Shown: one piece after another, positions 46,296 through 47,317 of the stretch
Numbering within the stretch: position 1 is the stretch's first letter
Layout: each line of letters starts with the position of its first letter
Source of the DNA: a phage
Direction: 5' to 3' (one strand)
Sequence record: PZ019084.1
Length of the DNA stretch: 64,000 nucleotides
The notes under the pieces: generated by a model
Told to the model about the DNA's origin: nothing
The model's database searches: none
The model's input: the letters and a program-made list of their open reading frames with translations, nothing else
Made by a program: the position numbers and the translations under genes

Positions 46296-46371
46296 TGGTC
46301 GAGGCAGTAGGGATCGAACCTACGACCTAGGACTTAGAAGGTCCTTGCTCTTCCTTCTGAGCTATGCCCCG
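46296..46371 (-). tRNA. tRNA-Arg: tRNA-Arg (anticodon UCU)
   Basis: Manual cloverleaf: acceptor CGGGGCA/TGCCTCG, anticodon loop CTTCTAA, T-loop TTCGATC, CCA encoded. Confidence 0.88.
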
Positions 46372-46375
46372 TAAT

Positions 46376-46451
46376 TGGGGTGACCGATGGGAGTCGAACC
46401 CATGACTACGAGAATCACAATCTCGAGTTCTACCAACTGAACTACGGCCAC
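46376..46451 (-). tRNA. tRNA-His: tRNA-His (anticodon GUG)
   Basis: Manual cloverleaf: acceptor GTGGCCG/CGGTCAC, anticodon loop TTGTGAT, CCA encoded; no encoded G-1. Confidence 0.8.
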
Positions 46452-46565
46452 ATTAATACCTACTCCAACAATCAAGATGTCTTCACACGAAATTAAGAGA
46501 AGAGTGATCAGTTCAACCCCTATAATCGCGTCAAGTAGATATTAATGTGACAGTTGTCACAAATT

Positions 46566-46640
46566 TGGCGGACGTGATAGGATTCGAACCTATAACCAAT
46601 CGCTTAACAGGCGATCGCTCTGCCATTGAGCTACACATCC
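46566..46640 (-). tRNA. tRNA-Asn: tRNA-Asn (anticodon GUU)
   Basis: Manual cloverleaf: acceptor GGATGTG/CACGTCC, anticodon loop CTGTTAA, T-loop TTCGAAT. Confidence 0.8.
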
Positions 46641-46644
46641 AAAT

Positions 46645-46731
46645 TGGTGGGGAGTGATGGAGTCGAACCACCCGAGTCGCAATGACAATGGATTTACAGT
46701 CCACACCGCTACCTCTACGGGATAACTCCCC
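46645..46731 (-). tRNA. tRNA-Tyr: tRNA-Tyr (anticodon GUA), long variable arm
   Basis: Acceptor GGGGAGT/ACTCCCC; anticodon arm GGACTGTAAATCC resembles E. coli tRNA-Tyr; 87 nt. Confidence 0.8.
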
Positions 46732-46744
46732 TTAATTCTTAATT

Positions 46745-46819
46745 TGGTGGCCCTGGGTGGAATTGAACCACCATCTGGCGATTATGAGTCGCTTGCTTGA
46801 ACCTTCCAGCTACAGGGCC
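46745..46819 (-). tRNA. tRNA-Ile: tRNA with anticodon CAU (Ile2/AUA-reading type, or Met)
   Basis: Acceptor GGCCCTG/CAGGGCC; anticodon arm GCGACTCATAATCGC as in E. coli tRNA-Ile2. Confidence 0.8.
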
Positions 46820-46820
46820 T

Positions 46821-46896
46821 TGGTGCTGATTGACGGAATCGAACCGCCGACCTTCTCATTACAAGTGAGTTGCTCTACCTACTGAGCTAAATCAGC
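46821..46896 (-). tRNA. tRNA-Thr: tRNA-Thr (anticodon UGU)
   Basis: Acceptor GCTGATT/AATCAGC; anticodon loop CTTGTAA. Confidence 0.85.
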
Positions 46897-46901
46897 AAAA
46901 C

Positions 46902-46991
46902 TGGCGGAGGCGATAGGATTTGAACCTATGAGTCGCCGGAGCGACTGCCGGTTTTCAAGACCGGTGCATTAAACCACTCTGCCACGCCTCC
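46902..46991 (-). tRNA. tRNA-Ser: tRNA-Ser (anticodon UGA), long variable arm
   Basis: Acceptor GGAGGCG/CGCCTCC; anticodon arm CCGGT-CTTGAAA-ACCGG; 90 nt. Confidence 0.85.
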
Positions 46992-46993
46992 AG

Positions 46994-47067
46994 TCTCCAT
47001 ACAAGGATTTGAACCTTGGACCTCCTGATCCCAAATCAGGCGCTCTACCAAACTGAGCTACACGGAG
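46994..47067 (-). tRNA. tRNA-Pro: tRNA-Pro (anticodon UGG)
   Basis: Anticodon arm CCTGA-TTTGGGA-TCAGG; CCA not encoded. Confidence 0.85.
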
Positions 47068-47077
47068 TAAATTAAAT

Positions 47078-47151
47078 TGGAGCGGATAATGAGAATCGAA
47101 CTCACATCATCAGATTGGAAGTCTGAGGTAATGCCATTATACGATATCCGC
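47078..47151 (-). tRNA. tRNA-Gly: tRNA-Gly (anticodon UCC)
   Basis: Acceptor GCGGATA/TATCCGC; anticodon loop CTTCCAA. Confidence 0.88.
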
Positions 47152-47156
47152 AAATT

Positions 47157-47243
47157 TGGTGCGAGAAGTGGGACTCGAACCCACAAGGAAATCATTCCGC
47201 AGCATTTTAAGTGCTGTGCCTTTACCAATTTGACCATTCTCGC
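47157..47243 (-). tRNA. tRNA-Leu: tRNA-Leu (anticodon UAA), long variable arm
   Basis: Acceptor GCGAGAA/TTCTCGC; anticodon arm CAGCA-CTTAAAA-TGCTG; 87 nt. Confidence 0.85.
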
Positions 47244-47244
47244 G

Positions 47245-47317
47245 CTGGGAATAAAGGACTTGAACCTTTGCATCCTGGAATCAAAATCCAGTGCCTTACC
47301 AACTTGGCTAATTCCCA
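47245..47317 (-). tRNA. tRNA-Gln: tRNA-Gln (anticodon UUG)
   Basis: U1-A72 acceptor like E. coli tRNA-Gln; anticodon arm CTGGA-TTTTGAT-TCCAG. Confidence 0.85.

Follow-up and report, generated by a model that had tools for sequence, protein, structure and literature searches.

We analyzed a 64,000-nucleotide stretch of phage DNA (sequence record PZ019084.1, hereafter the window) in which an array of 11 transfer RNA (tRNA) genes on the minus strand contains one sizeable gap, between the genes for tRNA-Asn and tRNA-His. The 95 nucleotides (nt) of this gap that adjoin tRNA-His are a conserved structured RNA under selection. The element is a new RNA family, nearest in kind to the small RNAs and processing helices of T-even tRNA regions, and its position in the sequence makes it the immediate 5′ leader of tRNA-His in a presumed polycistronic tRNA precursor. 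The structure and the link to tRNA-His are solid. As to function, we infer, with a probability of roughly 40%, that its closing helix, P1, is a double-stranded processing or punctuation site in the structured 5′ leader of the tRNA-His precursor.

The gap (46452–46565) was 114 nt long, rather than the 115 bp given in the original prediction for this DNA, and the claim that it holds no cloverleaf stood: ARAGORN made no call there, and there was no match to the Rfam tRNA model RF00005 or its clan in 46452–46565 even at E ≤ 10. The palindrome by which the spacer had been singled out, GTGACAACTGTCAC, is real and lies at 46547–46560 on the minus strand, but it is a minor part of the spacer, in which the adjacent 95 nt carry the conserved structure. 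The predicted fold of the spacer consisted of a small palindrome hairpin (P0) and a 95-nt domain closed by P1. Its energy was −32.7 kcal/mol (z = −4.4), and none of 200 shuffled sequences was as stable.

The helices of the element meet in a three-way junction whose purines (GAA) are conserved. Across variants, P1 is 13–15 bp long and P4 has 4 bp with a 7-nt UCNUGAU loop; P1, P4 (GCA-UCNUGAU-UGC) and the purine junction form the common core. The P2/P3 arm is modular, with at least five unrelated versions set in one frame and its sequence swapped between lineages: type A (GGGGUUGAACUGAUCAC...), type B (GGCAGAAGUCAUGAACCUGC), a CHI14 type, a Moon/myPSH1140 type and a PM2 type. In Kosakonia phage 305, a P1-like hairpin alone is kept, at the same place, and the whole interior, including P4, is lost. 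Coordinates of the helices are given in Table 1.

Homologues of the element provided the evidence that its structure is selected. In a MAFFT alignment of 14 distinct variants, 92.8% of pair cells were canonical, compared with 34–50% when the partners were slid by 1–3 columns, and eight pairs showed changes on both sides. Covariation was seen in P4, where one position reads A–U, G–C or U–A and another A–U or C–G. P1 was 97% paired, and in Escherichia phage W70 its sequence is largely different with the pairing retained. P2 was near-invariant, with a C–A mismatch in one clade, and is thus neither supported nor contradicted. When 19 sequences were fitted to a covariance model, a procedure that biases the alignment toward structure, 91.4% of cells were paired vs. 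33–51% after sliding, with double changes in 18 of 30 pairs. The structure could be placed on the tRNA strand because G–U pairs become A–C mismatches on the other strand: the alignment held 75 G–U cells, and pairing was 93% on the tRNA strand vs. 78% on the opposite one. The covariance model, built from the 14 distinct variants, likewise gave 87–113 bits in sense and 13–18 bits in antisense orientation. Between the window and phage Mineola, conservation was ~82% for the element and 88% for the neighboring tRNA-His, while the sequence upstream of the element could not be aligned.

The 95-nt domain was found by BLAST in 356 phage records, ~200 of them at least 95% identical (Tequatrovirus), ~150 at 80–90% (Karamvirus, Jiaodavirus), a few at 76–78% (Gelderlandvirus) and four from the Vequintavirinae (W70 type). 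The covariance model added a divergent second subfamily of ~27 records at the same place, including Winklervirus CHI14, Moonvirus Moon and KM16, Mosugukvirus PM2, Karamvirus myPSH1140 and Yersinia phage MHG19. This brings the total to ~380 phage records from at least eight Tevenvirinae genera and a few Vequintavirinae, and the T4-like carriers infect Escherichia, Shigella, Klebsiella, Enterobacter, Salmonella, Serratia, Citrobacter and Pectobacterium. Each genome carries a single copy, invariably in the orientation of the tRNAs. T4 and T6 lack the element. Among the records inspected, none carried an RNA annotation over it; virtually all were blank and one had a "hypothetical protein". Literature searches on SegB, on the T4 small RNA genes rnaC and rnaD, on tRNA arrays and with sequence strings turned up no description of it and no report of its expression.

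No match was found in 5,426 E. coli genomes. A bacterial or host origin was rejected after a pattern scan of 185,579 bacterial genomes, which returned 42 matches in unrelated GC-rich taxa, all scored as chance by the covariance model (≤19.8 bits). Pattern scans of IMG/VR and of metagenomes recovered the same phage variants plus chance matches and no wider diversity. The copy in Escherichia phage W70 (Vequintavirinae) lies at locus 1038–1131, between tRNA-Gly and tRNA-Gln. Its interior shares 87% identity with the Tequatrovirus form, and the sequence of its P1 is largely replaced yet still paired, which indicates horizontal transfer of the RNA module.

We also considered signals at the level of DNA or protein. 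Some features of the locus would suit an internal promoter or terminator for the downstream tRNAs, a target of a homing endonuclease or a small mobile element with inverted repeats, namely the 14-bp terminal inverted repeats around ~67 bp, the palindromes TGATCA and TCATGA inside the element, the inner arm swapped as modules between lineages and the activity of SegB-type endonucleases in the region (PMC2330249). We nevertheless consider any such signal extremely unlikely. The strand asymmetry of the pairing counts against it, the single copy is always in tRNA orientation, and the mapped preferred SegB site lies inside tRNA-Asn, as established in T2L, and not in the spacer (PMC2330249). A scan for sigma-70 promoters and intrinsic terminators found no minus-strand site in the spacer, with counts at the shuffled expectation, and no U-tract follows P1. 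A small open reading frame (ORF) was rejected as well, since all ORFs of the spacer run through tRNA genes and stops fall in the conserved core. In a search of 4227 Rfam families at E ≤ 10, no family was found for the element; the tail of a chance match to a long non-coding RNA (E = 8.1) overlaps it.

The attachment of the element to tRNA-His is direct. P1 ends in a U, the partner of its A1, and this U is position −1 of tRNA-His, next to G+1. The same zero-spacer junction occurs in Tequatro-, Karam-, Jiaoda-, Gelderland-, Moon-, Winkler- and Mosugukvirus, whether the upstream tRNA is Asn or Gln, and the element was on the tRNA strand in every Tevenvirinae locus inspected. The upstream side is more variable: the neighbor is tRNA-Asn in the window and tRNA-Gln in most genera, at distances from 1 nt after the CCA to >200 nt. 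In Mineola-type phages, P1 begins 1 nt after the CCA of tRNA-Gln, so that no single-stranded spacer is left for other endonucleases.

The pairing of P1 can also be extended into the tRNA itself. In several genera, the spacer bases before P1 read (U/C)GUCAC, which repeats the 3′ acceptor strand of tRNA-His. GUCAC has two alternative partners, the upstream GUGAC (forming P0) or G1–C5 of tRNA-His. With the second partner, P1 would grow from 14 bp to 19–25 bp by extension into nt 1–11 of tRNA-His, an extension that is partly conserved. The extended arms in the window (46441–46464 and 46534–46557; 24 nt, 83% complementary) form the longest inverted repeat of the 64 kb, and the extended helix was present in the minimum-energy fold of the Asn–His interval.

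Among known processing helices, the nearest are the RNase III stems of polycistronic stable-RNA precursors, for example in the rRNA operons of E. coli, in the early RNA of T7 and in the T4 tRNA precursor ahead of tRNA-Gln. An RNase III site takes up roughly 20 bp, about two turns, of nearly uninterrupted duplex. In T4, the enzyme reportedly processes tRNA precursors ahead of tRNA-Gln, and species 1 RNA is another reported substrate. The present element resembles these stems in that a helix is formed by the flanks of a segment that would be excised, that cutting would free the neighbors and that pairing is kept under covariation. It differs in that P1 has 13–15 bp unless extended and that the enclosed segment has its own conserved hairpin.

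Under the processing reading, the upstream GUCAC-containing stretch would pair with nt 1–11 of tRNA-His, and P1, extended to 19–25 bp, would keep the leader together with the 5′ acceptor strand of tRNA-His until an enzyme specific for double strands cuts. The obvious candidate for this cut is host RNase III, which we name purely by inference. Cutting would detach the 3′ end of the upstream tRNA from tRNA-His and leave the final trimming of both tRNAs to RNase P and 3′ exonucleases. The P4-containing interior would come free as a small, probably stable RNA, possibly like the T4 species 1 and 2 RNAs. The hairpin-only form in Kosakonia phage 305 points to P1 as the essential part. A processing helix would be most important in loci with P1 only 1 nt behind the CCA, which offer no single-stranded entry site.

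Several observations weigh against P1 as a processing site. With 14 bp (9–10 bp in W70), P1 by itself is a short substrate for E. coli RNase III. Loci with GUCAC give a robust extension of 5 bp and those of the Mineola type a weak one, and the extended helix was predicted by RNAfold without the tertiary stabilization of the tRNA, such that it may not outcompete the cloverleaf in vivo. The most conserved parts of the element are P4, the UCNUGAU loop and the adjoining junction, near-invariant except in Kosakonia phage 305, and a bare cleavage stem would not need P4 and the junction to be conserved. Finally, the element is not always followed by tRNA-His. Most of tRNA-His is deleted in phage teqskov with the element intact, it is reduced to GTGG in STP4-a and SEA1 with the element kept, tRNA-Pro takes its place downstream of the element in Yersinia phage MHG19, and in W70, where the element lies between Gly and Gln, tRNA-His does not adjoin it. 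These cases look like recent deletions or transfers, and secondary. The notion that the element is independent of tRNA-His was weakened, given that the STP4-a form was seen in two phages only and the other Gelderlandviruses retain tRNA-His.

Some of these observations favor the main rival reading, an autonomous small stable RNA gene, a third "species" RNA beside rnaC and rnaD, that uses tRNA processing for its excision. RNase P cleavage at +1 of tRNA-His would leave a blunt, paired, exonuclease-resistant end, and the P4 loop and junction would let the RNA act in trans, for instance as a decoy or as a ligand of a host or phage protein. Such a gene would account for P4, its loop and the junction being the most conserved parts in both subfamilies, for the survival of the element after loss or replacement of tRNA-His (teqskov, STP4-a, MHG19) and for the W70 copy with its changed but paired P1. 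T4 also offers a precedent of two small RNAs from the tRNA region (PMC3014915), both of which are present in the window as well. A free RNA gene, however, need not be joined to tRNA-His, which the element always is, with zero spacer, outside the few recent-looking exceptions. Kosakonia phage 305 has lost the interior including P4 and kept P1, and at least five lineages have exchanged the entire long arm for unrelated sequence. On balance, we rate an autonomous RNA as possible, if rather unlikely.

The element resembles the T4 species 1 and 2 RNAs (rnaC and rnaD) in being a small non-tRNA RNA of a T-even tRNA cluster on the tRNA strand. The T4 RNAs are co-transcribed with the tRNAs and their biological role is unknown (PMC3014915). 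The element differs from them in position, lying between two tRNAs and abutting tRNA-His, where rnaC and rnaD follow the last tRNA. Homology was rejected: in blastn, rnaC and rnaD matched the window at 45666–45927 only, where their true homologues lie, and the spacer compared with the T4 region gave chance words, with no similarity to the element. There is no Rfam family for either RNA, and neither homologue was reported by the Rfam scans of the window. A second comparison was made with the YrlA/Y RNA-like RNAs of bacteria and phages, which are also structured, located beside tRNAs and partial tRNA mimics (P1 being acceptor-like and P4 T-arm-like). The Rfam YrlA model gave weak matches to true tRNAs and none in the spacer, and the element has no T-loop sequence. 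We know of no Rsr/Ro partner in E. coli.

A three-way junction with GAA purines, a conserved loop and covarying stems is the usual signature of a tertiary fold, and a ribozyme or riboswitch would also be consistent with the type-B arm loop, which is complementary to the P4 loop at seven of seven positions (p about 0.003–0.006). In type A this pairing is weak (4–5 bp, p about 0.1–0.25), and inspection of the predicted folds of the CHI14, Moon and PM2 types found none. There was no Rfam ribozyme or riboswitch match even at E ≤ 10, and the CUGAUCA sequence lacks the essential G of the hammerhead core and is wrongly placed. A ribozyme or riboswitch is thus very unlikely. A general loop–loop (kissing) contact was also dropped as a feature of the family, being significant in type B alone. 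Pairing of the P4 loop with the variable/T region of tRNA-His, possible in the window, is lost in Mineola and by inspection was judged coincidental.

The element could alternatively be a functionless relic, a decayed tRNA or a duplicated tRNA-His that hitch-hikes beside a selected tRNA. The GUGAC...GUCAC of P0 resembles the collapsed acceptor stem of a tRNA-His copy, the 7-nt loop of P4 stands directly before the 3′ strand of P1 as a T-arm does before the acceptor strand, and related arrays carry deletion scars (teqskov, STP4-a). On the other hand, pairing in P1 and P4 is maintained by compensatory double changes in at least eight genera, the conservation of the element is close to that of tRNA-His, and tRNA models give no match in it. 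Decay without function is accordingly quite unlikely.

The tRNA-His gene to which the element is joined lacks an encoded G−1, as had been predicted. It starts with G at 46451 and has the acceptor stem GUGGCCG/CGGUCAC followed by C73 and CCA. Position −1 (46452) is T, where Salmonella hisR has G. The enterobacterial type has an encoded G−1 opposite C73, and of these two the phage tRNA-His has C73 and not G−1. T is also found at −1 in the tRNA-His of Mineola, CHI14 and mycobacteriophage Nappy, and phage tRNA-His genes may generally lack an encoded G−1. The first 15 nt of the Nappy tRNA-His are identical to those of the T4-like tRNA-His. Nappy has no element, and the absence of G−1 was therefore rejected as a peculiarity of element carriers.

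G−1 is a major identity element for the enterobacterial histidyl-tRNA synthetase (HisRS) (PMC9976931). This raises the question of whether the element is a maturation device for the G−1-less tRNA-His that directs an unusual 5′ cut, which we regard as unlikely. The leader would pair through −1 and into the 5′ acceptor strand, and an RNase III cut could leave a 5′-phosphorylated extra nucleotide, a 1-nt leader that RNase P would remove poorly. If this were true, the element would supply the extra 5′ nucleotide and phosphate needed by E. coli HisRS and would represent a third route to the −1 residue of tRNA-His, beside retention of an encoded G−1 and addition by Thg1.

Other tRNA-free stretches were noted in related arrays. 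Kosakonia phage 305 has a second P1-like hairpin at locus 2499–2529, AUUAAUGCCUAUUC-UUU-GAGUAGGCAUUGCU, with the same terminal sequences as P1 and no adjoining predicted tRNA; it is followed by a T-loop-like stretch, GGUUCGAGG, which may belong to a decayed tRNA. Stretches of 100–250 nt without a tRNA call are also present in Enterobacter phage AS6 (2513–2729) and Mineola (2766–2926 and 3003–3255), and these might hold further structured RNAs.

Table 1. Features of the tRNA region of the window, in transcript order, with the basis of each call.
Feature	Position	Strand	Basis and remarks
tRNA-Gln (TTG)	47244..47317	minus	ARAGORN; Rfam 67.3 bits; 86.5% identity with T4 tRNA-Gln
tRNA-Leu (TAA)	47157..47243	minus	ARAGORN and Rfam; 100% identity with T4 tRNA-Leu
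tRNA-Gly (TCC)	47078..47151	minus	ARAGORN and Rfam; 98.6% identity with T4
tRNA-Pro (TGG)	46993..47067	minus	ARAGORN and Rfam; 98.7% identity with T4
tRNA-Ser (TGA)	46902..46991	minus	ARAGORN and Rfam; 96.7% identity with T4
tRNA-Thr (TGT)	46821..46896	minus	ARAGORN and Rfam; 96.1% identity with T4
CAT-anticodon tRNA	46745..46819	minus	ARAGORN (as Met) and Rfam; ≤65% identity with any T4 tRNA
tRNA-Tyr (GTA), long variable arm	46645..46731	minus	ARAGORN; Rfam 30.2 bits
tRNA-Asn (GTT)	46566..46640	minus	ARAGORN; Rfam 74.1 bits
P0 hairpin, palindrome GUGAC-AACU-GUCAC	46547..46560	minus	Sequence, predicted folds
95-nt structured RNA element	46452..46546	minus	Fold, homologues, covariation; covariance model 109.5 bits
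P1	46533-46546 with 46452-46465	minus	14-bp closing helix
P2	46526-46531 with 46485-46490	minus	Arm helix
P3	46513-46520 with 46496-46503	minus	Arm helix
P4	46478-46481 with 46467-46470	minus	7-nt loop UCUUGAU at 46471-46477
tRNA-His (GTG), C73, encoded CCA	46376..46451	minus	ARAGORN and Rfam; aligned to host hisR
tRNA-Arg (TCT)	46296..46371	minus	ARAGORN and Rfam; ≤65% identity with any T4 tRNA
116-aa ORF, phrog_3355	45927..46277	minus	Between tRNA-Arg and the rnaD homologue; no T4 counterpart at that position
Homologue of T4 rnaD (species 2 RNA)	45812..45927	minus	blastn, 88% over 117 nt
Homologue of T4 rnaC (species 1 RNA)	45666..45804	minus	blastn, 98.6% over 139 nt

The tRNA array itself was as predicted from manual folding. 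ARAGORN, run on the whole window, called exactly 11 tRNA genes, all of them at 46296–47317, on the minus strand and transcribed in the order Gln(TTG), Leu(TAA), Gly(TCC), Pro(TGG), Ser(TGA), Thr(TGT), a CAT-anticodon tRNA, Tyr(GTA), Asn(GTT), His(GTG) and Arg(TCT). RF00005 independently identified the same 11, each at or above the gathering score, and the His, Asn and Tyr models that had been proposed were accepted by both programs. Ten of the 11 scored 59–74 bits; tRNA-Tyr, with its long variable arm, passed marginally at 30.2 bits (cut-off 29). Homologous tRNA-Tyr genes are annotated in T6, and the T2L homologue has been studied previously (PMC2330249).

The seventh tRNA had been called Ile2(CAU). 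Its CAT anticodon is confirmed, it was labeled Met by ARAGORN, and its identity is plausibly Ile2. It is not orthologous to the T4 tRNA-Ile. Its anticodon stem-loop and its C4–G69 and C5–G68 pairs resemble what we take to be the sequence of E. coli ileX, a likeness that favors Ile2 over Met.

The map of T4 agreed with the prediction, showing eight tRNAs, segB between Ile and Arg and not the same 11 genes; rnaD and rnaC directly follow Arg. The arrangement in T6 differs again, segB coming after Tyr. In the window, the left side of the array is orthologous to T4, with Leu, Pro, Gly, Ser and Thr at 96–100% identity and Gln at 86.5%. In the slot occupied by segB in T4, the prediction had placed three extra tRNAs and a spacer. 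These are present, but the CAT-tRNA and tRNA-Arg are non-orthologous as well and a 116-aa ORF separates Arg from the rnaD and rnaC homologues. Judged by sequence identity, the right half (CAT-tRNA, Tyr, Asn, spacer, His, Arg and the 116-aa ORF) is a replacement module and not T4 plus insertions, because the CAT-tRNA and tRNA-Arg are at most 65% identical to any T4 tRNA. The 116-aa ORF showed a weak, sub-threshold match to DUF2654.

The array is not unusual; the 11-tRNA cluster is already known and is ordinary for this phage group. The 1.7-kb region is 97–99% identical over its full length to ~260 Tequatrovirus records with the 11 tRNAs annotated alike. For 259 records, a single place accounted for at least 80% of the 1.7-kb query, with 99.1% identity in the best match. 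The matching records include REP4, G50, wV7, slur phages, AR1, HP3, RB18 and Tequatroviruses of Shigella and Citrobacter. The 11-tRNA array of the wV7/AR1/HP3/RB18 type has the same gene order and near-identical sequence as the window, with no difference in the tRNA genes. Every record that matched the 1.7-kb query showed a second matching place elsewhere in the genome. Arrays without segB that contain Met(CAT), Tyr, Asn and Arg were published in 2008 for T2L, RB1 and RB3; tRNA-His does not occur in the text of that T2L paper (PMC2330249).

All three extra tRNAs, Tyr(GTA), Asn(GTT) and His(GTG) (46376–46731), have GUN anticodons. tRNAs with GUN anticodons form the queuosine family, which is the target set of colicin E5-type anticodon nucleases. 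The extra Tyr, Asn and His tRNAs may be spares against host defense. In a 2026 paper, the Septu defense was described to cleave tRNA-Tyr and SegB to amplify the T6 tRNA locus (PMC13096335).

The element is an apparently undescribed, covariation-supported RNA motif carried by hundreds of T4-like phages of the type used in therapy, and it is tied to a tRNA whose 5′ end is special. Its covariance model can be used for annotating the element, which is now left blank or miscalled as a hypothetical protein. The charging of a phage tRNA-His with C73 and without G−1 in an enterobacterial host also becomes testable. The role of the small RNAs of the T4 tRNA region has been open for 50 years, and the present element, which is more widespread and structurally simpler, offers a tractable entry to the processing and use of tRNA arrays by phages.

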